Source: an uncultured bacterium (GTDB taxonomy: Bacteria > Patescibacteriota > Minisyncoccia > Phycocordibacterales > UBA6065). Taken from it: a DNA stretch of 64,000 bases. Below are positions 25,331 to 41,233 of the stretch, piece by piece; position 1 is the stretch's first letter; each line of letters begins with the position of its first letter. Below the pieces are notes generated by a model. It saw nothing but the letters and a program-made list of their open reading frames with translations. It was not told where the DNA came from and did not search any database. A program made the translations under genes and the position numbers. Location of the stretch: assembly GCA_966243015.1 (NCBI GenBank), contig CBIMES010000002.1, positions 48,518 to 112,517 of the forward strand, read 5' to 3'.

Positions 25331-25340
25331 GGTAGTTGTG

Positions 25341-25622: not shown

Positions 25623-25635
25623 ATAAGTAGTGGTA

Positions 25636-26064: not shown

Positions 26065-26076
26065 ACAGGTGTTTTA

Positions 26077-26748: not shown

Positions 26749-26753
26749 ATGGT

Positions 26754-27134
26754 TTACTTGGTTGCAGCTACCTTCTTAGTCTTGGCCGGCGCCTTGATCG
26801 CCTTGGTTGCCTTTGGGGCAAGGACAAGGTGAACGTGGCTCGTCTTCTTCTTGATCGGGAAAGCCGTTCCTCGAGCGCCTGGCATGTGTCGCTTCATGGT
26901 AAGGCCGAGGTCTACGCGGCACTCCTTAACGACGAGGCCCTCAAGTGGGATGTTGAGGTTTTTTGCGTTTGCGACAGCTGAGGCAAGGAGCTTCGCGAGA
27001 GGGTCGGAAGCGCGCTTAGTGGTCACGCCAAGCATGTCCATGGCGGCGGTGACTGACTTGCCCTTGATGAGGTTCGCGACGAGGCGGACCTTTCGTGGGG
27101 ACTGTCGATAGTTTGTGAGGGATGCGGTTACCAT
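26754..27134 (-). CDS. rplV: 50S ribosomal protein L22
   Basis: SPRKVRLVANLIKGKSV..AMDML. Confidence 0.9.
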   Translation of the reverse strand: MVTASLTNYRQSPRKVRLVANLIKGKSVTAAMDMLGVTTKRASDPLAKLLASAVANAKNLNIPLEGLVVKECRVDLGLTMKRHMPGARGTAFPIKKKTSHVHLVLAPKATKAIKAPAKTKKVAATK

Positions 27135-27158
27135 AACGTTTTAGTTATAAGAAGACGA

Positions 27159-27500
27159 TTATTTCTTGTCGGTGGCAGCACCCTTGGCGGCCTGGGCAGC
27201 GGCGATCTCACCCTCCTTTTTCTTCTGCTCGAGGTCCTTCTGCATCTTACCGCCGTGCTTGTTGAACTTGCGGGTCAAAGAAAATTCGCCGAGTCGGTGG
27301 CCCACCATGTCCTCTGCCACCAGTACCTCGACGAAGTCCTTACCGTTATGAACGCCAAACTTGAAGCCCACCATCTCCGGGGAGATGACGCAGGCTCGTG
27401 ACCAAGTCTTAATAACCCCAGTCTCCTGTGGTTTCTTGCCGGCGATCTTGCTCAGAACTCGCTCGTCAACGTATGGGCCTTTTGAAAGTGATCGTGTCAT
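27159..27500 (-). CDS. rpsS: 30S ribosomal protein S19 (with a Lys/Ala-rich C-terminal tail)
   Basis: [13 protein letters not shown]...[18 protein letters not shown]. Confidence 0.9.
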
Positions 27501-27654
27501 GTATAGACGATAAATTACAGCTCGGGCGTTTGGACTATAGTCGCTAACACGACTTATTAAATGAAAAAACTAGGCTTAAACCTAGATTCCTTTACTTAGT
27601 GTCCATTCCGAAGCTAGTAAGGGCTATCCTAGCAGAAAACAAAACTAAGTCAAT

Positions 27655-27764
27655 GGGCTCGCTCTCGCCTCCCCGGAAAAGCACGCATAAAGCCCTGCTG
27701 GGCTTTTGCTCTGCTCGGCCCGGTCGGCCTGCGCAAGGCTTTTCCGGATAGGGAGAGACGAGCC
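27655..27764 (-). repeat. Structured inverted-repeat element, copy 2 (core at 27682-27738 is the reverse complement of the copy-1 core)
   Basis: Imperfect outer stem ggctcgctctcgcctccccgg / ccggatagggagagacgagcc around a core roughly 90% identical to the reverse complement of 7631-7686. Lies 150 nt upstream of rpsS on the minus strand. Confidence 0.65.
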
Positions 27765-27818
27765 TGATGCTTGAAAAATAGCGCTTTGTGAGGTATTTTC
27801 AAGGAGCAATCGATCTTT

Positions 27819-28010
27819 ATGAGTCCATCGACCCTCGAACAGGAGCTTGCGGCCCTTGGCCCGAGACCCCTGACCCAATGGGAAGACAAAATCGTGTTAC
27901 CTGACGGATCAACCAGAACATGCATATGCCACATGATTAGCGGCGTCAAAGCCCTGGCACACTGGCATTTCGCCCGACAGGAGATCCTTCAAAGACACGG
28001 CCAAGCCTGA
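27819..28010 (+). CDS. Small hypothetical protein (63 aa, contains a CICH motif)
   Basis: AAGGAG Shine-Dalgarno 12 nt upstream of the ATG; a terminator follows. No homology is assignable. Confidence 0.4.
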   Translation: MSPSTLEQELAALGPRPLTQWEDKIVLPDGSTRTCICHMISGVKALAHWHFARQEILQRHGQA

Positions 28011-28018
28011 CCCTGGCA

Positions 28019-28042
28019 GCCGCCCCTCAAGGGCGGCTTTTC
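28019..28042 (+). terminator. Terminator hairpin gccgccc-ctcaa-gggcggc followed by ttttc
   Basis: 7-bp GC stem with a T-tract after the 27819..28010 ORF. Confidence 0.55.
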
Positions 28043-28054
28043 ATGCGCGGCCAA

Positions 28055-28080
28055 GAAAAAGCCCCGTTTCTGGGGCTTTG
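28055..28080 (-). terminator. Terminator hairpin (aaagcccc / ggggcttt) for the 28094..28618 gene
   Basis: The minus strand reads aaagccccagaaacggggcttttt. Confidence 0.6.
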
Positions 28081-28093
28081 ATGGCCAAAGGGC

Positions 28094-28618
28094 CTAATTA
28101 TTAAAGACAATCTCCTGTCGGAAGGACATCAGGGGCGCCAAAGCGATCTTGCCTGAAGGCAGAACGACCTCGATTCCCTCGGAGGGCATAATGAAAATGA
28201 ACCCTCCCCTTTCATTCGAGTCCCGGTCGGCATCCGCGAGCAGCGTGAGAATCACAGCCTCGTCTTTCGATATCGAGAGGCCAAGTTCCTTGAATACGAG
28301 GAAGCTGTCCCCGTCTTTCTCGACGATGCCGTCAGGGATTGAGATTCGGGCCAGAGCCTTGCCGTCCTTATCCGCCAAGGAAAACCTCGACATGTTCTTG
28401 AGAACCTCGGGCTTTTTGTCTAGCCGGAACATGATCGAACTTACCGTCACACCCGATTCGAACGCACGAAGCGACAGACAGAACACGGGATTGGACCTTG
28501 TCCCCACGGAAATGCTGGTCCTCGACAATTCACCCTTGCGAACGGACAGATGTTCTTCAGGAAGCGCGTAACAAAAGGCTCCGAAAAAGAGCCCGATAAG
28601 GCAGAGTAGTTGTTTCAT
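28094..28618 (-). CDS. Secreted hypothetical protein (174 aa) with weak similarity to the 33175..33813 lipoprotein
   Basis: Signal peptide MKQLLCLIGLFFGAFCYA. LRAFESGV...LADKDG...IPDG segments loosely align with LRAFHSVSLVDADG... of the 33175..33813 protein. Confidence 0.55.
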   Translation of the reverse strand: MKQLLCLIGLFFGAFCYALPEEHLSVRKGELSRTSISVGTRSNPVFCLSLRAFESGVTVSSIMFRLDKKPEVLKNMSRFSLADKDGKALARISIPDGIVEKDGDSFLVFKELGLSISKDEAVILTLLADADRDSNERGGFIFIMPSEGIEVVLPSGKIALAPLMSFRQEIVFNN

Positions 28619-28715
28619 GGTGAAAGAGCGGATGTTTGCATGGTTTATAACACAAAACCGTTGCTACGGCAATTTTAGTAGCGACGGTTCCTTTATTTTA
28701 AGGCGTTTAATTGTC

Positions 28716-29132
28716 CTACCCCCTCTTTCTCCTGTAGCTCGCCTTTGACTCGCGGGTGATAGCGAGAATCGAGATGACGGCAATATACGAGGCGCTTACC
28801 TCTGGCGGCATCTTGTATTCGATATCGGTGAGGGCCTGTGCCGTGATCATGCCCATAATGAGAACCGTCCAGAGGATCGCATAGAGCTCGCCCGGGTGAA
28901 AGCCCTCGTGAACCCTGTGCCATCGACGAAACTCCTTTTCGGCACTGTAAATCGCCAAAGAGGCGCAATAGATACCCGCGATTGTCAGGATTACGTGATT
29001 CTCGTCGAGAATGTTGTGATTGAGAAAATCATAGATAATTGCAGCAAAGAAAGCGACCGTCCAGAAGTTGACCAAACCGCGCCAGAAGCCGAACTTGCCG
29101 ACCCTTTCTGACAGATTGAGGATGAATGCCAT
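28716..29132 (-). CDS. Small integral membrane protein (138 aa, 4 TM)
   Basis: Four hydrophobic helices and a basic C-terminus; no family assigned. Confidence 0.5.
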   Translation of the reverse strand: MAFILNLSERVGKFGFWRGLVNFWTVAFFAAIIYDFLNHNILDENHVILTIAGIYCASLAIYSAEKEFRRWHRVHEGFHPGELYAILWTVLIMGMITAQALTDIEYKMPPEVSASYIAVISILAITRESKASYRRKRG

Positions 29133-29162
29133 GCCTTCATGATATCACGGGCAACGAAAAAC

Positions 29163-29190
29163 CCGCCTTTCGGCGGGTTTCTCTCTTGGT
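29163..29190 (-). terminator. Rho-independent terminator directly after rplB (aaacccgcc-gaaa-ggcgggttt followed by ttttcg on the minus strand)
   Basis: 9-bp GC stem with a T-run, sitting between rplB and the inserted genes. Confidence 0.65.
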
Positions 29191-29207
29191 TGAATGAGTC
29201 GAGAAGA

Positions 29208-30059
29208 CTAGTTCTGCCCCTTTGCCTTTCCGACCTTTCGGCGGGAGACAATGAAGACGTTCGAGTACTTCTTTGGAGTTCGGGTCTTCTGGCCCTTTCC
29301 TGCTGGCTTACCCCATCGGGTCTTGAGCCTTCGGAGACCTCGTCCCTGTCGTCCTTCACCTCCACCGTATGGATGGTCTACTGGGTTCTGTGCAGTACCT
29401 CGGACGGTCGGTCGAATGCCGAGCCATCGTGATCGTCCTGCCTTACCCGAGTTGACGAGCCAGTGCTCATCGTTCGATACCTGTCCGATAGTCGCGAAGC
29501 ACTCCTCGTGCACCTTTCGTACCTCTGAAGACGGCATCTTGATCTGGGTATATCCAGCGTCGTTACCGATGATCTGGGCGAAGATTCCAGCCGCTCGGCC
29601 GATCTTTGCTCCGCCCTGAGGCTTGACCTCGATGTTGTAAACGAAGGTTCCTACAGGAATCTTCTTGAGAGGGAGCGCGTTTCCTGCCGCTACCGCTGCC
29701 GCTGCACCTGCGACGAGGGTCGTGCCGACCTTAACTCCCTTAGGGAGAAGGACGTAGCGTCGCTCGCCGTCTCGGTATGCCGCGAGTCCGATGAAGCCCG
29801 ATCGGTTTGGATCGTACTCGACAGACTTGATGGTAAATGGGATGTCTCGCTTGTCGTACGAGAAGGAGACGTCTCGGAAGAGCCTCTTGTGTCCGCCTCC
29901 CTTGTGGCGAACAGTGATGCGACCGTGGTGGTTTCGTCCTACCTTTCGGGTGCCGCCGTGAGTGAGGGCCTTAACAGGATCCTTCGAGGTGATGTACTCC
30001 TTGAAGTTAATCGTCTGCATGTGCCTTCGGCTCGGGCTCGTTGGTTTATATGTTTTCAT
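29208..30059 (-). CDS. rplB: 50S ribosomal protein L2
   Basis: 283 aa with a canonical L2 sequence (GRNHHGRITVRHKGGGHKR). Confidence 0.95.
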   Translation of the reverse strand: MKTYKPTSPSRRHMQTINFKEYITSKDPVKALTHGGTRKVGRNHHGRITVRHKGGGHKRLFRDVSFSYDKRDIPFTIKSVEYDPNRSGFIGLAAYRDGERRYVLLPKGVKVGTTLVAGAAAAVAAGNALPLKKIPVGTFVYNIEVKPQGGAKIGRAAGIFAQIIGNDAGYTQIKMPSSEVRKVHEECFATIGQVSNDEHWLVNSGKAGRSRWLGIRPTVRGTAQNPVDHPYGGGEGRQGRGLRRLKTRWGKPAGKGQKTRTPKKYSNVFIVSRRKVGKAKGQN

Positions 30060-30084
30060 GGCCTTGTTGTTAATTTATGAGGGA

Positions 30085-30546
30085 TTACGCGAACTCGATG
30101 ACATCTCCCTTCTTGAGGTAGACGTACGCCTTCTTGGCAGAAGTGGTCTTGCCGGTCCTACCGCGAGCCCACATGGTCTTTGCAGGGATCGATACGACAG
30201 ACACCTTTACCGGGGTCACCTTGTAAGTGTCCTTGATTGCCTGAGCAATCTGCTGGGCATTCGCCGATACGGCGACGTTGAAGGTGTAGACGTTGTTGTT
30301 CTCAGAGAGAATCGCGGCCTTCTCGGTAACGCGAGGACCCTTAAGCACGGCACCCTTCGATGCAACAGTGGTCTTTGCGTCGGCTTTCTTCTCGGCCTGA
30401 GCAACGGCCTTTGGAGCCTTCTCGATAGCCCTCTCCTTTGCAGGAACCTTCTTGTTGACGGCCTTCTTGAGAGGCTTGTCGGTCTTAACCTCTGCCTTTG
30501 CCTTTACCTCCTGATCCTTCTTCTCCTTTCGTGAAAATAGTGCCAT
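30085..30546 (-). CDS. rplW: 50S ribosomal protein L23 (with a Lys-rich N-terminal extension)
   Basis: C-terminal L23 domain YKVTPVKVSVVSIPAKTMW... Confidence 0.85.
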   Translation of the reverse strand: MALFSRKEKKDQEVKAKAEVKTDKPLKKAVNKKVPAKERAIEKAPKAVAQAEKKADAKTTVASKGAVLKGPRVTEKAAILSENNNVYTFNVAVSANAQQIAQAIKDTYKVTPVKVSVVSIPAKTMWARGRTGKTTSAKKAYVYLKKGDVIEFA

Positions 30547-30552
30547 AGAAGT

Positions 30553-31215
30553 TTAGTTAAGCTTAGCCTCGATAACCTTGAGAGCCTCGGCTGGGTTCTC
30601 GAAGACAACGAATTTGCTGTTAAGGAGGTCGAGGAGATTGAGGTTTCGAGCCTCGTCAACTACGACCGAGCCGATGTTCTGGAAGCTCTTCTCGGTGTTC
30701 ACGTCCTTCTTCGCGAGAGCGATGAAAGCAGCGTTCTTTCGCTTGGTAGCGAGAGTCTCGAAGCCCTTTGCCTTTGAGAGGCCAACGAGAGCCGCCTTTG
30801 CGTCCTTCGTCTTTGGAGCGTCGAATGAGAGAGAGTCGACGAAGAGAACCTCGCCGTCCTTCCACTTCTTCGAGAGAAGGGTAAGGAACGCCTTCGCCTT
30901 TACGGCCTTGTTGACCTTTCGGGCGTAGTTCTTGTCGTTTCGAGGACCGTGTGCGACACCTCCACCAACCCAGATAGGAGATCGGGTCGATCCGTGTCGC
31001 GCGCGACCGGTTCCCTTCTGCCTCCATGGCTTCTTGCCTCCTCCGCTTACCTCACCTCGGGTCTTGGTGTGAGCGATAGGCTGTCGAGCGTTCGACATCA
31101 TCGATACCATTACCTGGTGAACGAGGTCGGCGTTCCACGAGAGACCGAATGCCTCTGCCGAGAGCGCGATCTTTCCTGCCGACTTACCCTCCTTGTTGTA
31201 GATTGTTGCGTCCAT
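30553..31215 (-). CDS. rplD: 50S ribosomal protein L4
   Basis: 220 aa with an L4 sequence. Confidence 0.9.
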   Translation of the reverse strand: MDATIYNKEGKSAGKIALSAEAFGLSWNADLVHQVMVSMMSNARQPIAHTKTRGEVSGGGKKPWRQKGTGRARHGSTRSPIWVGGGVAHGPRNDKNYARKVNKAVKAKAFLTLLSKKWKDGEVLFVDSLSFDAPKTKDAKAALVGLSKAKGFETLATKRKNAAFIALAKKDVNTEKSFQNIGSVVVDEARNLNLLDLLNSKFVVFENPAEALKVIEAKLN

Positions 31216-31229
31216 ATATTTGAAATTAT

Positions 31230-31838
31230 TTATGCAACGATAGATACGAGAGTTCCCCTTCGACCAGGAAGAGAACCGTGAATAACAATCTCGTTGGTCT
31301 CAGGGCGAACCTGGAGAACCTTAAGATTCTTGACGGTGACCATGTCGCCACCCATGCGGCCGGCCATGCGCATGCCCTTGGCAACGCGTCCGCCCGCTCG
31401 TGCGCCTCCGCCGATAGAACCCGCCTCTCGCTCAGAGTGCTTCTGACCGTGGGTTCGGGAACCTCCCTTGAAGTGATGGCGCTTAACCACACCCTGGAAG
31501 CCCTTACCCTTTGACTCTGATCGCACAGAGATAACATCTCCCTCCGCAAAGGTTGAGAGATCTACCTTGTCGCCCTTCTTGAACTTAGCGGCCTCTTCTG
31601 CGGATACGCAGAACTCGCTGAGGTGAAGGAAATTGCCGAGACCCTTCTGGGCCTTGTTGATGCGAGCCTCCTTCTGCTCGCCGTAGCCTACCTGGAGGGC
31701 GTTGTAGCCGTCGGTAGACTCGGTTTTGACCTGCGTGATGACAACAGGGCCTGCCGAGAGGATAGTCGCGGGAAAAGCGCGACCGTCCGCATCGAAGACC
31801 TGAGTCATATTCTTCTTAGTGCCGAGTATGAACTTCAT
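31230..31838 (-). CDS. rplC: 50S ribosomal protein L3
   Basis: Start placed at MKFILGTKKNMTQVF, matching the MKGILG.K.GMTQ.F consensus. The ORF-track N-terminal extension is not supported. Confidence 0.9.
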   Translation of the reverse strand: MKFILGTKKNMTQVFDADGRAFPATILSAGPVVITQVKTESTDGYNALQVGYGEQKEARINKAQKGLGNFLHLSEFCVSAEEAAKFKKGDKVDLSTFAEGDVISVRSESKGKGFQGVVKRHHFKGGSRTHGQKHSEREAGSIGGGARAGGRVAKGMRMAGRMGGDMVTVKNLKVLQVRPETNEIVIHGSLPGRRGTLVSIVA

Positions 31839-31984
31839 GTTATGCGCGAGCATGGGTCTGGGGGACCCAGAGGCTCTCTTAACCAACCTATTAAATTAAA
31901 AAGAAGCCCTTGCTTCTCGTGGGCATGATACTACCTTAAAAGGTCGATTTATGCAAATTGGGCCGCCTGAAGCGCGTCCACCAA

Positions 31985-32016
31985 AGAAAAGGGCCGCTAG
32001 CGCAAGCTAGCGGCCC
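31985..32016 (-). terminator. Terminator for 32031..33020 (gggccgctagc-loop-gctagcggccc followed by a T-tract on the minus strand)
   Basis: 11-bp perfect stem. The stem sequence is nearly identical to the hairpin at 33137-33159. Confidence 0.65.
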
Positions 32017-32030
32017 GAACCCTTGGTGCG

Positions 32031-33020
32031 TTATCTGACGGGAATGCCATCCTTTAAAAGGGTGAAAAGGAAGGTCTTCTTGTAGTCGTAATGCGGAGCG
32101 AATACCGCGTCCGTGCCGACGGCCTCAAGCTTGAGCAGATAGGTCACGGTAACCCGGTATTTGGGTTCTGACGCCGTCCCGATTGATTCGACTCGCGTTG
32201 TGGGTGAGCCCAGAATCGTCGTTTCGACATTAACATTCCGAACAGCTAGGTCCTTTGACTTTACCAACCCTGCAGCCCGACCGCCATTTACCGTGGTCAC
32301 CCCCTCCCCTTGCAGGCTGGCGGATATGACCGTCGATGAGCTTTTCGCGTTACGAACATCAACCTTGACGACAAAATCGCGCTTGGAACGGGCGGGGATT
32401 TCCCAGTCCACGTCCTCAAATACGATTTCGTCATTCATCACGTCTGCCATGGCAATGAAATCATTACCCTGGTAGAGATAAGCCCTGGTTACCATCGCGG
32501 AACCGCCCGAAGTCTTAACCAGAATCCGAACATCATCGACAGTCCTCTTTTTAAGGGAAGAAAGCGTGAAGTTCAGAATCGGAACCAGGTCAACCTCATC
32601 ATCCTCTGCGCCGTAAGAGGCCACGGCAAAACTGGGACCAGTCTGCTGCGAGGCGTAAAGACAGAGATCGACGGGCACAGGCTTCTTCCAGAACTTGGAC
32701 GGAAGCCGGACGGCTGAACTGATTCGATTGACCCCAGTCGCGTGACGGCTTTCCAGAAACGGATCGGGCAGCTGCCAGGTCGGAGACCAGACAGCGCCTT
32801 CAAACGAAACCCGATAAACCTCCCTGCCGGGATTGACGACCTCATACGACACCGAGACGGGGAGCGTGATTTCATTGTTCTCCTGAAGCTTGAAATAGCC
32901 CGCAGGATAACCACCTACGACCACGCCCGAAGACGGGACGCTGTAAGAGACCTTGAGCTGGGCAAAAGCGTTCGTGACGCTGATAACAATGGCAAAGAAC
33001 AGGACGGGCAGTAGTTTCAT
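32031..33020 (-). CDS. Secreted hypothetical protein (329 aa), paralogue B of the inserted family
   Basis: Signal peptide MKLLPVLFFAIVISVTNAFA. The N-terminal domain SVPSSGVVVGGYPAGYFKLQENNEITLPV...PG aligns with residues ~325-380 of the 35862..37175 protein. Confidence 0.6.
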   Translation of the reverse strand: MKLLPVLFFAIVISVTNAFAQLKVSYSVPSSGVVVGGYPAGYFKLQENNEITLPVSVSYEVVNPGREVYRVSFEGAVWSPTWQLPDPFLESRHATGVNRISSAVRLPSKFWKKPVPVDLCLYASQQTGPSFAVASYGAEDDEVDLVPILNFTLSSLKKRTVDDVRILVKTSGGSAMVTRAYLYQGNDFIAMADVMNDEIVFEDVDWEIPARSKRDFVVKVDVRNAKSSSTVISASLQGEGVTTVNGGRAAGLVKSKDLAVRNVNVETTILGSPTTRVESIGTASEPKYRVTVTYLLKLEAVGTDAVFAPHYDYKKTFLFTLLKDGIPVR

Positions 33021-33131
33021 GTAGATATTCGGCCATCAGAGCGGAAGTGCTCTGGTGCGGCTTTCCTGTCTTTAATTATAGCATAAATCTATTAAAAGTC
33101 AATAATGACATAATCACCCCACCCGCCAAAT

Positions 33132-33159
33132 AAAAAGCCGCCAGCTTGAAGCTAGCGGC
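33132..33159 (-). terminator. Terminator for the 33175..33813 gene (gccgc[t/c]agc stem, tttttattt on the minus strand)
   Basis: Stem gccgccagc / gctagcggc with one mismatch, followed by a T-tract. Confidence 0.6.
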
Positions 33160-33174
33160 CGAGGACCACAGTCC

Positions 33175-33813
33175 TTATTTCTTGACCTTTTCGGAGATGA
33201 TAGTAACCACCTGCTTGAAGGGCAGCCCAGGGCCAGACACCTCCTTACCCTGACTGTCGATACAGACGACGCCCTCGGGACACATTTCAAAGACGTAACT
33301 GGCGCCATCGGGATTCGAGATGAAGGAATAACGCGGGCTCGCCTGGATACTGAGCCATCGCTTCGCATCCTTGGGAATCATGTATTTGAGACCCTTAAAG
33401 TCGAGCAGGAGCCTGTCCCCTTCCGTCCGGAACGACGTGTCGTCGACAGGCGTCTCGGACACGAATCGACCGTCGGCATCAACCAGCGAGACGGAGTGGA
33501 ATGCCCTGAGGAATCGCCACATGTCCTGGCCAACATCTATCCTGACGCTCGTGAGCACCATGTCCAGACCATGAGCCTCCACGCTAAACGACAACACCGG
33601 CGACGACTCGCCTTTCGGCGAAATGGCGGAACGCGCGAGCGACCCCTTCTCAACCGCAACCGACGTCGGGACCCGCAACTGGACCTCATAATCCCGCTTC
33701 GACTCGGGACGGCTCGCGCATGCGGTGAAAAACACGGACGCCGGGACAAGAAGGAGCACGAGCGAAGGAATCCCATCACACTTCCAGTGGAACTTTTTTA
33801 TAACCGATTTCAT
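33175..33813 (-). CDS. Putative lipoprotein (212 aa)
   Basis: Signal peptide with a lipobox-like LVPASVFFTAC. No assignable domain. Confidence 0.55.
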   Translation of the reverse strand: MKSVIKKFHWKCDGIPSLVLLLVPASVFFTACASRPESKRDYEVQLRVPTSVAVEKGSLARSAISPKGESSPVLSFSVEAHGLDMVLTSVRIDVGQDMWRFLRAFHSVSLVDADGRFVSETPVDDTSFRTEGDRLLLDFKGLKYMIPKDAKRWLSIQASPRYSFISNPDGASYVFEMCPEGVVCIDSQGKEVSGPGLPFKQVVTIISEKVKK

Positions 33814-33986
33814 GAGGTTCTAAACACCCAGGGCATATGCCACCCTCGACGCACCCGCGCCAAGAGCTTTGGGAATGATTCTGGAATCGAATTTGCCACA
33901 AACCAGCACAAAGTCAATTCGCGCAAGAAAAAAACCGCCTTTCGGTGGTTCTTTCTGTCTTTCGAATAAGTTCAGAGACACGAGAA

Positions 33987-34022
33987 AATAAGGACCACCG
34001 CCGAAGCGGTGGTCCTTATTTT
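33987..34022 (-). terminator. Rho-independent terminator immediately after rpsJ (12-bp stem aaggaccaccgc / gcggtggtcctt, then uuauuuuc)
   Basis: Perfect 12-bp inverted repeat abutting the rpsJ stop codon at 34023. Confidence 0.65.
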
Positions 34023-34388
34023 CTAAATCATCTTCACGTCGATGTTCACGCCTGAAGGCAATGACATGTTGGTGAGGGCCTCGATGATCTTCTGGTTAGG
34101 ATTCAAGATATCGATGAGTCGCTTGTGAACTCGCATCTCAAACTGCTCTCGCGCATTTTTGTAGACGAACGACGAGCGGTTCACCGTGTACTTCTTGATC
34201 TCCGTTGGGAGTGGCACCGGACCGAGCACCTCTACGTCGTAGCGGAGAGCGGTGTCGATGATCTGCTTTACCGACGCATCGAGAATCTTGCTCTCGTACG
34301 CTCGGACGCGGATTCGGAGTCGCGGAGTTGCGTCCGCTTTTGCCACCGCCTTCTTCTTAGTTGTTTTCTTTGTTTCTGCTACTGCCAT
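34023..34388 (-). CDS. rpsJ: 30S ribosomal protein S10 (with a Lys-rich N-terminal extension)
   Basis: LRIRVRAYESKILDASVKQIIDTA... Confidence 0.9.
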   Translation of the reverse strand: MAVAETKKTTKKKAVAKADATPRLRIRVRAYESKILDASVKQIIDTALRYDVEVLGPVPLPTEIKKYTVNRSSFVYKNAREQFEMRVHKRLIDILNPNQKIIEALTNMSLPSGVNIDVKMI

Positions 34389-34428
34389 ATAAGTGCTAGT
34401 CTACGTATTTCCTGCTTTTTAGCAAGTA

Positions 34429-35625
34429 TTACGCGATGATCTTGGTTACGACGCCTGCACCGACGGTCTTTCCACCCTCTCGGATGGTGAAGCGCTGCTT
34501 GTCCTCGAGAACGATCGGAGCGTGGAGCTTTACCTTGAAGGTAACGGTGTCTCCAGGCATAACCATCTCTACGCCAGGGGCGAGGGTAACCTCACCGGTA
34601 ACGTCAGTGGTTCGAACGTAGAACTGAGGCTTGTATCCGTTGAAGAATGGGGTGTGTCGTCCGCCCTCCTCCTTCTTGAGGATGAGAACCTCAGCCTCGA
34701 ACTCGGTGTGTGGAGTTACTGAGCCTGGCTTAGCGAGAACCTGACCTCGGTGTACGGCGTCCTTTGCGGTACCTCGGAGGAGAACTCCCGCGTTGTCACC
34801 TGCCATACCAGACTGGAGCTGCTTGTTGAACATCTCGATTCCGGTGATGGTGGTCTTGGTGGTGTCCTTGATACCAACGATCTCGACTTCCTCGCCAACC
34901 TTGATGGTACCGCGCTCGATTCGGCCGGTAACCACGGTTCCTCGACCCTCGATCGAGAAGATGTCCTCGATAGGCATGAGGAATGGCTTGTCGGTCTCTC
35001 GCTCTGGAAGAGGGATGTAGGTGTCGAGAGTAGACATGAGCTCCTTGATCTTCTTTGACCACTCGTCAGTGTTGTCGGCAGCCTCAAGAGCCTTGAGAGC
35101 TGAGCCGCGGATGACAGGAGTGTTTGCTCCGTCGAAGCCGTACTTGGTGAGGAGGTCTCGAACCTCGCCCTCGACGAGATCAATGAGATCCTTGTCCTCT
35201 ACTGCGTCGCACTTGTTAAGGAAGACGACCATTCGAGGTACTCCAACCTGCTTTGCGAGGAGGATGTGCTCTCGAGTCTGAGGCATAGGGCCGTCGATAG
35301 CGGATACCACGAGGATAGAGCCGTCCATCTGAGCGGCACCCGTGATCATGTTCTTGATGTAGTCAGCGTGACCTGGGGCGTCGATGTGAGCGTAATGTCG
35401 GGTATCTGACTCGTACTCAACGTGGGCGAGAGAGATGGTAACGACCTTCGATGCGTCTCGAACAGTACCGCCCTTCGCGATATCTGCGTACGCCTTGTTC
35501 TTTGCGAGACCGTCTCGAGCCTGTACCGCGAGGATCGCGGTGGTAAGGGTCGTCTTGCCGTGGTCAACGTGGCCGATAGTACCTACGTTAACGTGAGGCT
35601 TAGTTCGTGTGAATTCACCTGCCAT
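34429..35625 (-). CDS. tuf: Elongation factor Tu
   Basis: 398 aa with [18 protein letters not shown] and NKCD motifs. Confidence 0.97.
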
Positions 35626-35810
35626 AGTATTTTTGGTAAGTAATGAAGATGTACGCGCGAGATTGGCACATCCTCATGACCTACAAATTAATGTTCTAAG
35701 CTGTTAAATAATGCTTTTCCAACTGAAACCAATTGAAAAAGCGCGCAAAATGCGTACCCCGTATCATAGCAAAGTGAGAGAGGAAGTCAAACATTACCCT
35801 TCCCGACGAC

Positions 35811-35844
35811 AAGCCAAAAGCCGCCCGAGGCGGCTTTTGGCTTG
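35811..35844 (-). terminator. Terminator for 35862..37175 (15-bp stem aagccaaaagccgcc / ggcggcttttggctt)
   Basis: Perfect long inverted repeat after the stop codon. Confidence 0.65.
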
Positions 35845-35861
35845 AATGTGGTCAACGTGAG

Positions 35862-37175
35862 CTATCTGAGAGCGTTAACCAGCCTTACCAGATCCTCAAT
35901 GGCGAACGCAACCGAGGCGAGGCTGGAATGTGATTCGACGCTTGATGTCACCGGCAGGGTCTTCCAGACGGTGTTTGGGGAAGACGATGCAAGAACCGTC
36001 GCCTGGGCCCTGCCGTCAGAATCCATGTAGTTTATCTTCTCAAGCTCAACCTGATAGATACCGCTCGCGCCCGGAGACAGGAAAAACGTGTGATACACAG
36101 GAACCTTCACCTGATTGTTTTCCTGCACCTTAAAGGCGACGCCGCTTGGCAAACCTGACGTCACGACACCGACTGACGGCACCGAGAAATACGAGAGCGC
36201 GCCATCAACGGGGGTTTTTACGCCATTCCTATAGACCGAGAACACGAACGAGCCCGGCTGCGAGAACGAATAATCATCTTCCCTGGCAAGAATCGATACG
36301 TTAAAGGTTGCCCTTACCGTCGTGGTAGCGCCGAACTGTGTAGACATACCGACGTGTTTTTCAATCGACGGGGTGCCGACAAGAGAGAACTCCGGTCCCG
36401 CGCCAACGCTGTTCGGCACGGGAGCCACGGCAGACCTCGCAGCAGGCGCCTTGTCCGCAGATACAATACCCATGTATATATAGAGCTCGACAAGGTTAAA
36501 CAAACTCATGTTTGCGGGCGCGCCCAGGGCTATCTCCCGCGCCTGCTGAGCCTTGGCGGGGGTAATGATGCCTACGCCTATAAAAGTCTCCGCAAGATCA
36601 GTGGCTGCCTTGTTCTGGGCTTGCGGAGGGGTAGATGTTGCGACTGGGGCGCTTTCGACAATCGAGAAAGACCCGCTCTGCTTATATCCCGTGGCAGTGC
36701 TCAGATACACGATGTAGTCACTCGCCACAGGAGTCGACGTCGCGATCTTCCAAGAAAACGATCCCGCGCTTGAGACCTTGCCGCTCGCCACTGGATTGCC
36801 CACAGTCTTGGACAGGACATTTTTGGTTGGGCCCGTTGATTTTCGATACACCGCGAGGCCAAGGCTGTTATTCGAAGTCGTGAGACCAGAAACCTCCCAC
36901 GAGATAGTCACCGTGTCGCCAACTTTGTAAGCCTCTCCTCCTGCGGGAGCCAGCGAATTAATGACCGGCTTTGCGCTCAAGGACGGCGCAGGAGCAGGCT
37001 TGGCCACCGTACTGTTAAGCACGGGCTTCGCCACCACGGTCGCCTTAGCGGGTGTAGACACCTTGGTTGGCAGCACATTGCCCCGGATCATTGTCTGAGC
37101 AGAGGTTGCCGAGACCGAGAGACCACACACGAGAAGCACCGCCGAGACCGACGCGACCGCAATAACGTTCTTCAT
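35862..37175 (-). CDS. Secreted hypothetical protein (437 aa), paralogue A of the inserted family
   Basis: Signal peptide MKNVIAVASVSAVLLVCGLSVSATSA, Ser/Thr/Ala-rich. Its C-terminal domain SVPSVGVVTSGLPSGVAFKVQENNQVKVPV...PG is shared with the 32031..33020 protein. Confidence 0.6.
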   Translation of the reverse strand: MKNVIAVASVSAVLLVCGLSVSATSAQTMIRGNVLPTKVSTPAKATVVAKPVLNSTVAKPAPAPSLSAKPVINSLAPAGGEAYKVGDTVTISWEVSGLTTSNNSLGLAVYRKSTGPTKNVLSKTVGNPVASGKVSSAGSFSWKIATSTPVASDYIVYLSTATGYKQSGSFSIVESAPVATSTPPQAQNKAATDLAETFIGVGIITPAKAQQAREIALGAPANMSLFNLVELYIYMGIVSADKAPAARSAVAPVPNSVGAGPEFSLVGTPSIEKHVGMSTQFGATTTVRATFNVSILAREDDYSFSQPGSFVFSVYRNGVKTPVDGALSYFSVPSVGVVTSGLPSGVAFKVQENNQVKVPVYHTFFLSPGASGIYQVELEKINYMDSDGRAQATVLASSSPNTVWKTLPVTSSVESHSSLASVAFAIEDLVRLVNALR

Positions 37176-37204
37176 GAAAAGATAAAAAGAGCTGATAAAT
37201 AAAA

Positions 37205-37252
37205 AACTCGCCCAACTACTCTTGATTCGTAAAGTGTTTGGGCGAGTTCTCT
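37205..37252 (-). promoter_or_regulatory. 5'-leader hairpin (11-bp stem aactcgcccaa / ttgggcgagtt, 25-nt loop) followed by a U-tract, ~25 nt upstream of the 35862..37175 start; candidate attenuator
   Basis: It sits between the promoter at 37267-37294 and the ATG at 37175 on the minus strand. Confidence 0.45.
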
Positions 37253-37266
37253 AAACTCACTCCATA

Positions 37267-37294
37267 AGTATAGTCGAAATTTTGAAAAAGTCAA
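37267..37294 (-). promoter_or_regulatory. Sigma70-like promoter TTGACT-N16-TATACT for the inserted secreted-protein gene
   Basis: The minus strand reads ttgact ttttcaaaatttcgac tatact. It lies downstream of the fusA terminator. Confidence 0.5.
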
Positions 37295-37308
37295 GATGTC
37301 GCAGACAG

Positions 37309-37336
37309 CAAAAGCCACCCTTTCGGGTGGCTTTTG
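37309..37336 (-). terminator. Rho-independent terminator after fusA (caaaagccaccc-gaaa-gggtggcttttg)
   Basis: 12-bp stem with a T-run. Confidence 0.65.
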
Positions 37337-37354
37337 TGTAAGTCGTGGTCAAAA

Positions 37355-39499
37355 TTACTTTCGAGCGGCAACGATCTCCTTCTCGACGTTTGGCGGAACA
37401 ACCTCGTAGTGGTCGAACTCCATGGTCGATGATCCCTGACCAGAGGTCATAGATCGGAGGGCGGTCGTGTATCCGAACATCTCTGAGAGAGGAACCTTTG
37501 CGGTGATGACCTGGGCCTGTCCTCGCATAGTGGTTCCCTCGATGAGTCCTCGCTTCGAAGCAATCGATCCAGTGATGTCTCCCATGAACTTCTCAGGGGC
37601 GATGATCTCGACCTTCATGATTGGCTCGAGGATAACTGGCTTAGCTCGCTTTGCCGCGTCCTGGAACGCCATCGATCCCGCGATCTTGTAGGCGATTTCA
37701 GACGAGTCAACGTCGTGGTACGAACCGAAAGTAAGCTCACACGATATGTTGACCATCCTGAATCCTGCGACAACGCCACGATCCATAGCCTCCTTAACAC
37801 CCTTCTCGACCGCTGGGATGAACTCGTTTGGAATAACTCCTCCCTTGATCGAATTGATGAACTCGAACTCCTCGTATCGAGACACGTTCTTCGGAACCTT
37901 CTCGCCCTCTGGCAATGGCTCCATGGGCTTGAGGGTGATTCGGGCGTGACCGTACTGACCCTTACCTCCAGACTGCTTAACATGCTTATAGTCAGCCTCG
38001 GCAGTGCCCTGAATGGTCTCTCGGTATGCCACCTGAGGCTTACCGACGTTTGCCTCGACGCCGAACTCTCGCTTCATTCGGTCGACCATGATCTCGAGGT
38101 GGAGCTCACCCATTCCCGCGATGAGGGTCTCGCCGGTCTCTGGGTTAGCAGTGATCCTAAAGGTTGGATCCTCGTTCGCAAGCTTGCGGAGAGCGCTACC
38201 CATCTTCTCCTGGTCACCCTTGGTCTTTGGCTCAATGCGCATCGAGATAACTGGCTCAACGAACTTGATGGCCTCGAGAACAATCGGGTTGTTCTCGTCG
38301 CAGAGGGTGTGTGAGGTGAGGGCCTCCTTGAGACCTACCGCAGCGGCAATCTCTCCAGCGAACACGCGCTGAACCTCCTCCTTCTTGTCCGCCTGAAGTC
38401 GGACGATTCGCGAGAGTCGCTCCTTCTTGCCGGTGGTTGAGTTGTAGATGTACGAACCTGCCTCCACGCTACCCGAGTAGACACGGAAGAAGGTGAGCTG
38501 ACCGACGAATGGATCGTTCTGAAGCTTGAAGGCAAGCGCGGAGAACGGCTCCTTGTCGTCAGCGTGTCGGAGAATCTCCTCACCGGTGTTAGGATTAATA
38601 CCCTTAACCGCCGGGATGTCGAGCGGTGACGGGAGGTAATCAACGACAGCGTCGAGAACGAGCTGAACGCCCTTGTTCTTGAGCGCGGTACCGGTCATGA
38701 CCGGGAAGATCTTGCAGGCGAGAACCGCCTTTCGAAGCATCTTCTTGAGGGTTGGGACATCGAACTCCTTGCCCTCGAGGTACTCGGTCATCATCGCATC
38801 GTCTGTCTCGGCAATCTTCTCGACGAGCTCTGATCGGTACTTCTTTGCCTCGTCTACCATGTCGGCAGGAATCTCGTTCTCGATGACGTTCATGCCCATC
38901 TCGCCCTCGAAGGTGTAAAACTTCATCTTGAGGAGGTCGATGACTCCCTTGAAGTTCTCCTCTGCTCCCACAGGGATCTGGATTCGAACGCCGTTCTTGT
39001 TGAGTCGGTCGAGGATAGACTTGTACGACTTCTCGAACGAAGCTCCCATTCGGTCGAGCTTGTTGATGAAGCAGATTCGAGGAACGTTAGACTCGTCCGC
39101 GTATCGCCAGTTTGTCTCTGACTGTGGCTCCACTCCCGCAACGCCGTCGAACACGACGACTGCACCGTCGAGCACTCGAAGCGATCGCTTTACCTCTACG
39201 GTGAAGTCGATGTGGCCCGGGGTGTCGATAACGTTGAAGCGGTGCTTCATGCTGTTGTCGCCCTTTGGCATATAGGTAGGGTTCCAGAAGCAGGTGATGG
39301 CAGCAGCCGTGATAGTGATGCCTCGCTCTCGCTCCTGCTCCATCCAGTCGGTGACGGTCTCACCCTCGTGAACCTCACCGATCTTGTGGGTCATACCGGT
39401 GTAGTAGAGGATTCGCTCCGAGGTGGTCGTCTTTCCCGCGTCGATATGGGCGATGACTCCGAAGTTACGTACTTTGTCGAGTGGATAATCTCTATTCAT
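37355..39499 (-). CDS. fusA: Elongation factor G
   Basis: 714 aa with AHIDAGKTT and DTPGHIDF motifs. Confidence 0.97.
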   Translation of the reverse strand: MNRDYPLDKVRNFGVIAHIDAGKTTTSERILYYTGMTHKIGEVHEGETVTDWMEQERERGITITAAAITCFWNPTYMPKGDNSMKHRFNVIDTPGHIDFTVEVKRSLRVLDGAVVVFDGVAGVEPQSETNWRYADESNVPRICFINKLDRMGASFEKSYKSILDRLNKNGVRIQIPVGAEENFKGVIDLLKMKFYTFEGEMGMNVIENEIPADMVDEAKKYRSELVEKIAETDDAMMTEYLEGKEFDVPTLKKMLRKAVLACKIFPVMTGTALKNKGVQLVLDAVVDYLPSPLDIPAVKGINPNTGEEILRHADDKEPFSALAFKLQNDPFVGQLTFFRVYSGSVEAGSYIYNSTTGKKERLSRIVRLQADKKEEVQRVFAGEIAAAVGLKEALTSHTLCDENNPIVLEAIKFVEPVISMRIEPKTKGDQEKMGSALRKLANEDPTFRITANPETGETLIAGMGELHLEIMVDRMKREFGVEANVGKPQVAYRETIQGTAEADYKHVKQSGGKGQYGHARITLKPMEPLPEGEKVPKNVSRYEEFEFINSIKGGVIPNEFIPAVEKGVKEAMDRGVVAGFRMVNISCELTFGSYHDVDSSEIAYKIAGSMAFQDAAKRAKPVILEPIMKVEIIAPEKFMGDITGSIASKRGLIEGTTMRGQAQVITAKVPLSEMFGYTTALRSMTSGQGSSTMEFDHYEVVPPNVEKEIVAARK

Positions 39500-39623
39500 A
39501 AATTAGTGGCTAACGATGTTGGAACCCCCATTCCTTAAATAAAAAGCCAAGAGGAGACTCTTGCTAGGTAGGGATAGAGTATAGTAAAAGACGCCGAAAA
39601 TCAAGAAAGAACCTTTATGTCAG

Positions 39624-40229
39624 CTATTTGTAGAGCTTGGCACACTGTCGACATGATCCTATCTCGCACGCAGCCCCGTCACCTGTTGTGTTGATAGGGT
39701 CAGCCCAGTAGAATTTACCCCAATAACCTCCCAGTACTGCGCACTGCGCGAACGTCGGTTGGCCTGCGGCTTCTTCAGGGATATATCCGATCTGGAAGCT
39801 GTCTGTGCCGTACGAACTCACATCAACCACGTTCCCATTCTTATCTGTGACGAGACCTGCGATGAGCGCCACGGGCGATGCGTAAATGTAAGCGTTTGCC
39901 TCGCGCGTAGGCACAGGATCAATTGGAACCTTAGCCATATAAGGCGCGAGCGCGGTGTTCAAAGCATCATTACCTTTGTGATTGACGGCACACGTCTGAC
40001 TCGACGTCATACCGAGACAGGCCCCTTTTGTAACAGGATACGATCCCCCATGATCCAAGGCATAGAGATAAAGGGCCTTCGATATCTGGTCCATATCGGC
40101 AACGCGTTTTGCGTTCCTCGCCTTAAGTCGCGCCGCGTTCAGGCTCGAGAGCACGACGCTCGACAGCAAAGCGATGATCGAAATGACAACAAGAAGTTCA
40201 ATGAGTGTGAAGCCCTCTCTGCGATTCAT
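39624..40229 (-). CDS. Type IV pilin-like (prepilin N-terminal methylation domain) protein
   Basis: Start placed at MNRREGFTLIELLVVISIIALLSSVVL. The upstream ATG lies inside the rpsG terminator hairpin. Cys-containing C-terminal domain. Confidence 0.7.
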   Translation of the reverse strand: MNRREGFTLIELLVVISIIALLSSVVLSSLNAARLKARNAKRVADMDQISKALYLYALDHGGSYPVTKGACLGMTSSQTCAVNHKGNDALNTALAPYMAKVPIDPVPTREANAYIYASPVALIAGLVTDKNGNVVDVSSYGTDSFQIGYIPEEAAGQPTFAQCAVLGGYWGKFYWADPINTTGDGAACEIGSCRQCAKLYK

Positions 40230-40255
40230 ATGAATCGATGATACCACCGTTGAAA

Positions 40256-40287
40256 CAGCAAAAGCCACCATGTGGTGGCTTTTGCTG
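40256..40287 (-). terminator. Perfect 15-bp palindromic hairpin after rpsG (cagcaaaagccacca / tggtggcttttgctg)
   Basis: Seen directly in the sequence. The T-run is short (ttt), so it may be only a partial terminator. Confidence 0.5.
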
Positions 40288-40313
40288 TTTAAAACAATTC
40301 AGTAATTACCAAA

Positions 40314-40784
40314 TTACCAAGCAAAGTGAGCGAAGGCCTTGTTTGCCTCTGCCATCTTGTGCACGTTCTCGCGCTTCTTGACCGCCTCGCCCTCGTTCTT
40401 CGAAGCGGCGATAATCTCCTCGGCGAGCTTAACGGCGATAGGCTGCCCCTTCTTCGCTCGAGCCGCGGTAACGATCCACTTCATAGAGAGAGCCTGGCGT
40501 CGCTCAGGTCGAACCTCGACAGGGACCTGGTAGTTTGCGCCTCCGACTCGTCGCGACCTGACCTCAACCTGAGGGGCAGTGTTCTTGAGAGCGGCCTCGA
40601 GAACCTCGATAGGGTTCTCGACCTTTGCCTTGTCCTTGATAACCTCGAGGCAGTCGTACACGGCGGTTCGCGCGGTGTTCTTCTTGCCGTCGTACATGAC
40701 GTAGTTGATGAGCTTGTTTACTCGATCGTTGTCGAACTTGATGTCGCCGCCAATCGGCTTCCTTGCCTTAATTTTTCGTCGCAT
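40314..40784 (-). CDS. rpsG: 30S ribosomal protein S7
   Basis: 156 aa with a canonical S7 sequence. Confidence 0.95.
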   Translation of the reverse strand: MRRKIKARKPIGGDIKFDNDRVNKLINYVMYDGKKNTARTAVYDCLEVIKDKAKVENPIEVLEAALKNTAPQVEVRSRRVGGANYQVPVEVRPERRQALSMKWIVTAARAKKGQPIAVKLAEEIIAASKNEGEAVKKRENVHKMAEANKAFAHFAW

Positions 40785-40816: not shown

Positions 40817-41233
40817 TTACTTAGCCGCCTTTGGCTTCTTGGTGCCGTACTGGCTTCGACCCTTTCGTCGGGTCTCAACGCCCGCTGCGTCGAGCACTCC
40901 TCGAACCACTGAATAGCGGAGACCGACGTCCTTGACTCGTCCACCTCGAAGGAGAACCACTGAGTGCTCCTGAAGGTTGTGGCCCATGCCTGGAACGTAG
41001 GCGGTAACCTCCATGCCGTTAGAGAGTCGAACTCGCGCGATCTTTCGGATTGCTGAGTTTGGCTTCTTTGGGGTCTTGGTGGTCACCTTGATGCACACGC
41101 CTCGCTTGAACGGCGAGAAGAAGTATCGTGGCTTGTTCTTGAGAACGTTGAAGCTCTTGGTGAGAGCGACCGACTTGGACTTGCGCTTGATTGAGCTGCG
41201 CTTCCTCTTTACCAGCTGGTGAATGGTTGGCAT
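40817..41233 (-). CDS. rpsL: 30S ribosomal protein S12
   Basis: [11 protein letters not shown]...KKPNSAIRK... Confidence 0.95.

Follow-up and report, generated by a model that had tools for sequence, protein, structure and literature searches.

The str-S10-spc cluster is a textbook case of a conserved gene order, and models of coordinated ribosomal protein (r-protein) synthesis are built on its long operons. Here we describe this cluster in an uncultured, ultra-small bacterium of the Patescibacteriota, on a 64,000-nt stretch of contig CBIMES010000002.1 (assembly GCA_966243015.1, positions 48,518 to 112,517), which as a whole is referred to as the window and in which accessory genes, hereafter cargo, stand between blocks of ribosomal protein and elongation factor genes. 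Based on Pfam matches, the order on the minus strand is rpsL-rpsG-(pilin)-fusA-(437 aa)-tuf-rpsJ-(212 aa)(329 aa)-rplCDWB-(138 aa)(174 aa)-593-nt spacer-rpsS...map, with the cargo given in brackets by the type or length (amino acids, aa) of its products. The ancestral order and orientation rpsL-rpsG-fusA-tuf-rpsJ-rplCDWB-rpsS-rplV-rpsC-rplP... is retained in the Pfam assignments, the exception being rpmC, which is absent between rplP and rpsQ. A first-pass annotation, made from the sequence of the stretch, had reported accessory genes at four junctions of a cluster said to be contiguous in almost all bacteria; the listing of open reading frames (ORFs) and the Pfam matches bear out all four insertions at the positions given, and the statement on other bacteria was somewhat overstated. 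The short spacers without terminators or internal promoters that are typical of the canonical str and S10 operons are not what we find here: the four occupied junctions measure 0.6-1.9 kb and together contain 11 terminator-like hairpins, 10 of them with a U tract, and seven sigma70-like promoter sites (Table 1). The rpsL-rpsG spacer, on the other hand, comprises only 32 nt and has no hairpin, and the conserved 40-nt spacer between tuf and rpsJ is free of terminators.

Promoters and terminators divide the cluster into predicted units

Every junction spacer was read and folded, and promoters were located by a consensus scan. Terminators of the hairpin-plus-U type have folding energies of -12 to -29 kcal/mol, and hairpins were found at all sites at which the first-pass annotation had placed them, namely after rpsG, fusA, rpsJ, rplB and each inserted gene, with the reservation that the hairpin 3' of the pilin gene is weak (-6.3 kcal/mol) and that the 174-aa gene is followed by a second hairpin which lacks a U tract. 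Strong TTGACT-type promoter sites precede the 437-aa gene, tuf, the 329-aa gene and rpsS, and the one proposed earlier for the 437-aa gene, TTGACT-N16-TATACT, was recovered by the scan at 37294-37267. The sites of fusA and rplC are weaker yet conserved in relatives, and for rpsL a weak candidate promoter was read by eye. From these signals we predict seven promoter-defined units, the last of which, beginning with rpsS, is possibly split again before rpsN.

The inserted genes differ in how they fit into this arrangement. Since the pilin gene starts only 22 nt past the rpsG terminator and the 138-aa gene only 19 nt past the rplB terminator, neither has room for a promoter of its own. The 174-aa gene is preceded by a weak promoter-like site, and the 110 nt upstream of the 212-aa gene contain no clear promoter. 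The pilin and 138-aa genes are probably expressed by read-through past the r-protein terminators and do not form independent units, and the 174-aa gene is probably a read-through passenger as well. Of the earlier proposal that the cluster is transcribed as at least six separate units, the prediction of several units stands and is backed by comparative evidence, with a count of seven; the full independence of every inserted gene has to be given up in view of the pilin and 138-aa genes.

The same junctions are open across Patescibacteria

When one genome per species was searched with the L3 (rplC) protein, 80 loci were obtained, the nearest of which come from metagenome-assembled genomes (MAGs) labelled Patescibacteria group, Paceibacterota, Parcubacteria, Nomurabacteria and Kaiserbacteria, with a best L3 identity of 77% (locus L001). 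Cluster genes were placed in these loci by tblastn and the spacers between them measured. Among 56 Patescibacteria loci, spacers exceeding 300 nt were present at rplB-rpsS in 32 of 43 cases (median 787 nt) and at fusA-tuf in 22 of 25 (median 1008 nt), as well as at rplE-rpsN (13/27), rpsG-fusA (8/20) and rpsJ-rplC (15/49). The other 18 measured junctions were this wide in just five loci, three of them at rplP-rpsQ. In loci of the Candidate Phyla Radiation (CPR), the gap between tuf and rpsJ exceeded 300 nt only once in 44 cases and the rplC-rplD-rplW-rplB block was hardly ever split (55 loci), and none of the 23 non-CPR loci had an rplB-rpsS gap of this size.

Terminators and promoters follow the same distribution. 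Terminator-like sites, defined as a hairpin within 100 nt of the stop codon, were detected in CPR loci after rplB (23/51), rplE (15/33), fusA (10/25), rpsJ (16/49) and rpsG (5/20), after tuf in 6 of 44, and after all other genes in no more than 5%; after rplB in non-CPR loci there were none (0/23). A strict promoter pattern (TTGAC-N17-19-TAnnnT, within 150 nt upstream) occurred in CPR loci before rpsS (29/43), rpsN (12/28), tuf (15/42), rplC (6/54) and rpsL (3/20) and before any other gene in at most one locus. It was found in no locus before fusA, the -35 box of which reads TTGATT, and was likewise missing before rpsS in all 23 non-CPR loci. By gaps, rplE terminators and rpsN promoters alike, rplE-rpsN is a fifth hot spot in the relatives. 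Since gaps, terminators and promoters share one junction pattern, we conclude that the split is a trait of the lineage and not of one genome, which removes the uniqueness implied by the first-pass annotation.

Boundary signals remain where cargo is missing

Two relatives carry junctions without cargo. The rpsG-fusA junction is empty in L207, yet the terminator after rpsG and the promoter and leader of fusA are present; in L209 the rpsJ-rplC junction is empty, yet it retains the second terminator of rpsJ as well as the promoter and leader hairpin of rplC. Because cargo-free junctions retain terminator, promoter and leader, we conclude that the cargo did not fragment the operon, and that the unit boundaries are older and variable cargo came to occupy the spacers between modules. 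The causality implied at first, according to which the inserts broke the operon, should thus be reversed.

Across the clade the gap ORFs are diverse, with 102 Pfam families among 134 ORFs, including diacylglycerol kinase, PG_binding_1, PKD, Kre9_KNH, MazF-type toxins and two-component systems. We looked for one conserved insert gene common to the clade and instead found heterogeneous cargo with small recurring families only, such as diacylglycerol kinase at rplB-rpsS in four loci. The nearest genome, L001, holds different genes at the same four junctions, and the cargo of L209 is partly common to L001 and partly to the window. This distribution indicates that cargo persists vertically, with gain, loss and rapid divergence.

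Modules share a common leader plan

The leaders of fusA, rplC and rpsS share one plan: downstream of the promoter, a short GC hairpin lies at the 5' end or close to it, and a U-rich run leads from there to the AUG, in many cases without a discernible Shine-Dalgarno sequence. In most Paceibacteria, as judged from the upstream regions of L002-L056, the rpsS leader consists of the promoter, a 5-6-bp hairpin, U5-7 and the AUG, without an obvious Shine-Dalgarno sequence, and the hairpin is often AGCUC/GAGCU with compensatory variants. The leader of the 437-aa gene is almost unchanged in L209 despite a protein identity down to 34%, and it looks like an attenuator or regulatory leader. Upstream of rpsL (41234-41420, minus strand), approximately 150 nt are conserved with L209; a hairpin (GCGUCCCAGACGC) and then an AU-rich run form the start of this leader, which gave no match in Rfam.

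For tuf, alignment conservation of the promoter and the leader of about 150 nt reaches L001. Its two-tier hairpin recurred with the same shape and differing stem sequences in 18 of 18 Paceibacteria loci when each sequence was folded singly, and the loop retains UCUCG(C/U)(G/A)(C/U)G. We regard this hairpin as a candidate cis-regulatory element of the tuf-rpsJ unit. None of the window leaders, that of tuf included, matched an Rfam 15 family at the gathering threshold or at E<=5, except for terminator-like hairpins at chance level, and no known r-protein leader (e.g. S10/L4) was found by Rfam upstream of rpsJ, which starts 40 nt after tuf.

The E. coli S10 operon has a promoter, a leader hairpin and a U run ahead of its first cistron and is controlled by L4-mediated attenuation. 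The leaders described here resemble it in that a promoter, a hairpin and a U run lie upstream of the first cistron, but there is no similarity in sequence or by Rfam; moreover, every module here has such a leader, even the non-ribosomal 437-aa gene, and the hairpin forms the extreme 5' end in many relatives, where it directly adjoins an AUG that lacks an obvious Shine-Dalgarno sequence. A 5'-terminal stabilising hairpin combined with a U-rich initiation region, which is how we read these leaders, would fit them at least as well as attenuation. Relatives share the promoters and leaders of fusA, the 437-aa gene, tuf, rplC and rpsS, and the signals concentrate at these junctions; transcription of the cluster in several units is therefore very likely.

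A dispersed three-way-junction element lies next to the rpsS promoter

The structured repeat noted earlier in the rplB-rpsS insert is real and turned out to be one copy of a dispersed element of about 110 nt that folds into a three-way junction. Within 27651-27761, a stretch of 57 nt shares 96% identity with 7631-7686, in the second window copy, and 79% with a site in L010 that lies immediately before rpsS. The outer stem of about 20-37 bp differs in sequence between the two window copies, and the 55-nt three-way-junction cap is conserved; it comprises CUUGCGNAG, a 4-bp hairpin with the loop GRCYG, CGAGCAKAGYAA, a 6-7-bp hairpin with the loop ANYA, and then UAURYG. A covariance-model search recovered more copies at r-protein junctions in L002, L003, L005, L010 and L018, and another, recognised by eye, precedes the rpsS promoter of L209 at the corresponding position. 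In addition, a pattern scan of metagenome contigs gave at least 120 stretches with the element (L081-L200), often with several copies per contig. For 118 of the copies listed, 92% of cells pair as compared with 62% in shuffles, double changes occur at 41 of 42 pairs, and G-U pairs outnumber A-C pairs by 208 to 39, which points to an RNA, or at least to one specific strand, in the orientation used here.

The element occurs in either orientation relative to its neighbouring genes and has no match in Rfam 15. Four assignments were considered and rejected: an intrinsic terminator, as only 5 of 95 copies have a U-rich tail; a small RNA gene with its own consensus promoter (2 of 117 copies); a phage element (0 matches in viral contigs); and an association with one gene family or with r-protein genes, as the neighbours are diverse housekeeping genes and only 9 of 118 copies lie within 1.5 kb of a homologue of a translation gene of the window. 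Among the ORFs next to the element, Phage_integrase was found in 3 of 149, and no transposase is among the 25 commonest Pfam families. REP (repetitive extragenic palindromic), ERIC (enterobacterial repetitive intergenic consensus) and Correia-type sequences are dispersed intergenic palindromic repeats, the arms of which are conserved between copies. Our element resembles them in being multi-copy, intergenic, present in either orientation and built of long hairpins, but its arms vary even within one genome, its cap is conserved and covarying, and no transposase is associated with it. As to its position next to the -35 box of rpsS in the window, L209 and L010, one may speculate that it serves as an insulating or processing element between units. 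The tuf leader hairpin and the three-way-junction element are apparently two undescribed RNA motifs.

The cargo proteins of the window leave the cytoplasm

None of the six cargo proteins stays in the cytoplasm, to judge from their signal peptides, hydrophobic helices, a prepilin leader and a lipobox-like FFTAC motif. The set consists of one pilin-like protein, three secreted proteins or lipoproteins of the beta-sandwich/Ig-like type, one secreted protein without an assigned fold and one small membrane protein. All six supported genes share the orientation of the cluster. The first-pass annotation had counted one insert in the opposite orientation, a plus-strand ORF of 63 codons (27819-28010), which is unsupported as a gene, with no homologue outside the species (209 loci) and no counterpart among the called genes of L201, and is probably non-coding. 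A minus-strand ORF at 27650-27949, which overlaps the structured element, was discarded as spurious.

The pilin-like protein begins with MNRREG|FTLIELLVVISIIALL and thus has a prepilin leader, a G|F cleavage site, the conserved Glu5 and a hydrophobic helix; the match to the globular T2SSG domain (PF08334) scored 20.1 bits, slightly under the cut-off of 21. The start at 40229 that had been assigned earlier is preferable to that of the longer ORF at 40271, which overlaps the rpsG terminator. The gene is absent from the close relative L207. Prepilin-like paralogues are encoded elsewhere in the window on the minus strand, at 1324-1506, 42361-43401 and 51009-51416, and in the second of these, which lies right upstream of the cluster, an N_methyl leader is joined to a Laminin_G_3 domain.

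Only four homologue clusters were found for the 437-aa protein in 5.8e9 proteins. In all contexts that were read (self, P0002 and P0004; P0003, on a 1.9-kb contig, was left out) the gene lies at the fusA-tuf junction, and the relatives at this junction share 74% (L207) and 34% (L209) identity with it. The 212-aa protein has no homologue clusters in 5.8e9 sequences; its AlphaFold2 model (predicted local distance difference test score 84) shows a beta-sandwich that weakly matches cohesin/Ig-like folds. With the 174-aa protein the 212-aa protein shares 29% identity over 191 residues (E=2e-12), and a profile of this pair detected the domain in 58 representative proteins; of seven scanned proteins of about 600-690 aa with this domain, six have an N-terminal peptidoglycan-binding domain (PG_binding_1). 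Furthermore, the C-terminal region of the 437-aa protein resembles the N-terminal region of the 329-aa protein (45% over 51 aa). In view of the paralogy across junctions and of L209, which has no cargo there, the rpsJ-rplC cargo may derive from cargo nearby that was duplicated.

Probable explanation: short modules with spacers open to insertion

The explanation that we favour, with a probability of roughly 70%, is that of a modular cluster with its own promoters and leaders, the spacers of which are permissive landing sites for cargo. The bacterium belongs with the Paceibacteria-type Patescibacteria, and in this lineage the cluster, with its ancestral order and orientation kept, would be a row of short modules and not two or three long operons, the modules being rpsL-rpsG, fusA, tuf-rpsJ, rplC-rplD-rplW-rplB, rpsS...rplE and rpsN.... 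By sequence and conservation, every module has its own predicted sigma70-type promoter and a leader that opens with a small hairpin, followed by a U-rich tract, and a strong predicted intrinsic terminator closes most of them. A gene inserted between a terminator and the next promoter would have no polar effect, and we infer that for this reason the spacers act as permissive landing sites. Accessory genes would be gained in these spacers, kept for a while, diverge fast and be replaced. The 437-aa and 329-aa genes would be driven by their own promoters and the pilin, 138-aa and 174-aa genes most likely by partial read-through, the terminator working as a step-down valve.

Several points weigh against this explanation. 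Terminator efficiency and promoter use are read from sequence, and the hairpin-plus-U leaders could be attenuators instead of stabilisers, in which case the units would be more coupled. The loci were collected with one rplC query and are mostly Paceibacteria-like MAGs, their record labels are as deposited and some are doubtful, and the gene boundaries used for spacer lengths are estimates from tblastn hits. Lastly, landing sites leave the all-envelope cargo of the window unexplained, because the cargo of the clade is not enriched in envelope proteins: hydrophobic N-termini were found in 29% of clade cargo and in 46% of flanking genes. An enrichment in co-orientation was not seen across the clade either (70% for cargo versus 78% for flanking genes).

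These figures bear equally on expression hitch-hiking as the main reason for the cargo, according to which envelope and attachment genes are selected into the cluster for strong, growth-coupled transcription from ribosomal promoters through leaky terminators. Such selection would agree with the window, where six of six cargo genes are co-oriented with the cluster, six of six products are membrane or secreted proteins and two genes follow a terminator too closely (22 and 19 nt) for a promoter, and PG_binding, PKD and Kre9_KNH proteins recur at junctions of other Paceibacteria. We nevertheless consider it unlikely, as the clade cargo is mixed, with diacylglycerol kinase, toxins, kinases and biosynthetic enzymes, as it falls below the flanking genes in both hydrophobic N-termini and co-orientation, and as two cargo genes come with a consensus promoter of their own and a leader that is conserved.

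That the inserts are recently acquired horizontal islets or remnants of mobile elements is improbable. The near-orphan status of the cargo (among 5.8e9 sequences, the 437-aa protein has four homologue clusters and the 212-aa protein has none) and an ORF6N (phage-type) gene at rpsG-fusA in L001 would be in line with such an origin, but the G+C content is flat at 0.52-0.56, the same as in neighbouring genes, no direct repeats flank the cargo, no integrase, transposase or recombinase domain was found by Pfam in the cargo of the window, and there is no tRNA inside the region. Moreover, orthologues of the 437-aa gene at the same junction down to 34% identity argue for vertical descent, and cargo genes are paralogous to one another inside the window. 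A role of the cargo as lineage-specific ribosome or translation factors coupled to their neighbours, which its lasting position beside translation genes might suggest, is very improbable, given that all products have a signal peptide, lipobox, transmembrane segment or pilin leader with which they leave the cytoplasm, that the modelled fold of the 212-aa protein is predicted to be an extracellular beta-sandwich, and that the cargo differs among close relatives. The chance of an assembly chimera, a general risk with MAGs for which the first-pass annotation had proposed a check, is negligible, as an identical 437-aa protein is present on 13 contigs from different ENA and Logan samples, with short contigs each crossing single junctions, the 110-kb contig L201 carries the whole arrangement from rpsL to rplP, L202 and L203 have the same order around the 437-aa gene, and dozens of unrelated MAGs likewise have genes at these junctions.

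Insertions are known to separate operons of this cluster in Gammaproteobacteria and Bacilli, where bfd-bfr, tusDCB, ilv-leu and nrdHEF were inserted with the flanking order and orientation kept, and where insertions form the majority of the rearrangement events traced (PMC6735719; Brandis 2021, PMC8046335). The window is similar in that unrelated genes lie between units and the flanking collinearity is kept. Those insertions, however, are mostly located between canonical operons (nrdHEF inside rpoBC) and scattered among families, whereas the breaks described here fall inside the str, S10 and spc operons as defined in E. coli and Bacillus and yet in this lineage are unit boundaries, with terminator and promoter, even when empty; their positions are shared throughout a phylum-level group, they have their own promoters and leaders, and the cargo turns over while the break stays.

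A second parallel is provided by Archaea, in which there are two universal cores, uL3-uL4-uL23-uL2 and uS19-uL22-uS3...uL15, that form separate clusters in Asgard and some other Archaea, and in which uS10 is always apart from the uL3 cluster (PMC10833476). The breaks at rpsJ-rplC and rplB-rpsS in Patescibacteria coincide exactly with these archaeal boundaries. EF-1alpha and S10 are linked in archaea, and in a similar manner tuf-rpsJ stays linked here. In contrast to the archaeal clusters, the modules are collinear and adjacent, 0.2-7 kb apart, and not dispersed. By sequence the genes are bacterial, and there is no sign that the two arrangements descend from a common one.

We suggest only tentatively, and with somewhat less than even confidence, that Patescibacteria, at least the Paceibacteria, have divided the most conserved gene cluster of bacteria anew into modules with archaea-like boundaries (uS10, uL3-uL2, uS19...), each with its own promoter and the common hairpin-plus-U leader, and with long-lived landing pads for fast-evolving genes in between. 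An apparently undescribed, lineage-wide three-way-junction RNA in the rplB-rpsS spacer, which may insulate or process transcripts between units, and the tuf hairpin would belong to the same picture. In the literature we found no specific account of split r-protein operons in the CPR, nor of the three-way-junction motif. With modules of this kind, and with no known autoregulatory leader detected, CPR bacteria would have to balance r-protein output differently. The split would also expose natural neutral sites within an essential locus, and r-protein marker sets and synteny-based checks of binning should not call such gaps chimeras. For organisms beyond the reach of cultivation, the conserved promoters, leaders and new RNA motifs offer ready targets for metatranscriptomic tests.

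Table 1. Features of the str-S10-spc cluster in the window and copies of the three-way-junction element (positions refer to the window unless a locus is named; units are predicted transcription units)
Feature	Position	Strand	Remarks
rpsL	40817-41233	-	Pfam S12, E=6e-31; unit 1
rpsG	40314-40784	-	Pfam S7, E=6e-56; unit 1
Terminator after rpsG	40252-40286	-	13-bp stem, -22.8 kcal/mol, then GUUUC
Cargo 1, type IV pilin-like	39624-40229	-	Pfam N_methyl PF07963, E=5.8e-8
fusA promoter-like site	39578-39604	-	TTGATT-N15-TATACT
fusA leader hairpin and U tract	39537-39563	-	fusA promoter and leader conserved in L207 and L209
fusA	37355-39499	-	Pfam elongation factor G domains; unit 2
Terminator after fusA	37304-37337	-	-22.3 kcal/mol; kept in L207 with compensatory changes
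437-aa gene promoter	37267-37294	-	TTGACT-N16-TATACT
437-aa gene leader hairpin and U6	37194-37251	-	nearly invariant nucleotides in L207 and L209
Cargo 2, 437-aa secreted protein	35862-37175	-	Pfam Kre9_KNH, Ig-like, E=7.7e-7; unit 3
Terminator after 437-aa gene	35808-35843	-	-27.2 kcal/mol
tuf promoter	35763-35790	-	TTGACT-N14-TGCTATGAT
tuf 5' hairpin	35703-35746	-	by folding
tuf two-tier leader hairpin	35636-35684	-	about 50 nt; loop UCUCGCGCG
tuf	34429-35625	-	Pfam; unit 4
rpsJ	34023-34388	-	Pfam; unit 4
First terminator after rpsJ	33984-34022	-	-28.6 kcal/mol
Second terminator after rpsJ	33924-33956	-	-12.0 kcal/mol
Cargo 3a, 212-aa putative lipoprotein	33175-33813	-	no Pfam hit
Terminator after 212-aa gene	33126-33160	-	hairpin and U tract
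329-aa gene promoter	33075-33102	-	TTGACT-N16-TATAAT
Cargo 3b, 329-aa secreted protein	32031-33020	-	no Pfam hit; own promoter and terminator; unit 5
Terminator after 329-aa gene	31981-32016	-	-25 kcal/mol
rplC promoter-like site	31928-31956	-	TTGCAT-N17-TAGTAT; conserved in L209 and L001
rplC leader hairpin and U tract	31893-31918	-	conserved in L209 and L001
rplC-rplD-rplW-rplB	29208-31886 (rplB 29208-30059)	-	Pfam; unit 6; spacers 6-25 nt
Terminator after rplB	29152-29183	-	-22.4 kcal/mol
Cargo 4a, 138-aa membrane protein	28716-29132	-	homologue (61% identity) at same junction in L025
Terminator after 138-aa gene	28649-28689	-	hairpin and U tract
Cargo 4b, 174-aa secreted protein	28094-28618	-	paralogue of cargo 3a
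Terminator after 174-aa gene	28051-28080	-	hairpin and U tract
Second hairpin after 174-aa gene	28015-28042	-	no U tract
Three-way-junction element, about 110 nt	27651-27761	-	abuts -35 box of rpsS promoter
rpsS promoter	27626-27653	-	TTGACT-N14-TGCTAGGAT
rpsS leader hairpin and U6	27559-27586	-	rpsS promoter and leader conserved in L209 and L001
rpsS	27159-27500	-	Pfam; first gene of unit 7
rpsS-rplV-rpsC-rplP-rpsQ-rplN-rplX-rplE-rpsN-rpsH-rplF-rplR-rpsE-rplO-secY-adk-map	18728-27500	-	Pfam; unbroken; unit 7
rplE-rpsN spacer	24064-24167	-	104 nt; promoter-like TTGACT-N17-TAGTAT at 24138-24110
Three-way-junction element, second window copy	7608-7717	+	
Element copy in L010	9809-9919		
Element copy in L018	10519-10627		
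Element copy in L003	9643-9754		
Element copy in L002	16990-17100		
Element copy in L005	4815-4929		
Element copy in L038	711-821		about 2 kb upstream of rpsL

Other observations in the window

The slot usually occupied by rpmC (L29), between rplP and rpsQ, is an empty gap of 13 nt (25623-25635), and tblastn with the L29 of L003 as query gave no match in the window, L001, L209, L010 or L018; the gene is in its usual place in 26 other Patescibacteria loci. Also absent is rpmD (L30), between rpsE and rplO (21909-21922), as is expected for CPR bacteria. The rplW gene (30085-30546, minus strand) encodes 153 aa, of which residues 67-152 form the L23 domain, preceded by a Lys/Ala-rich N-terminal extension of about 65 residues. 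Outside the cluster, the plus strand of the window encodes a tRNA-Ile with the anticodon UAU (3078-3152), which is uncommon in bacteria, and a transfer-messenger RNA (5825-6221) with the tag AKSSVSPYFAARDFSFAYAIA.

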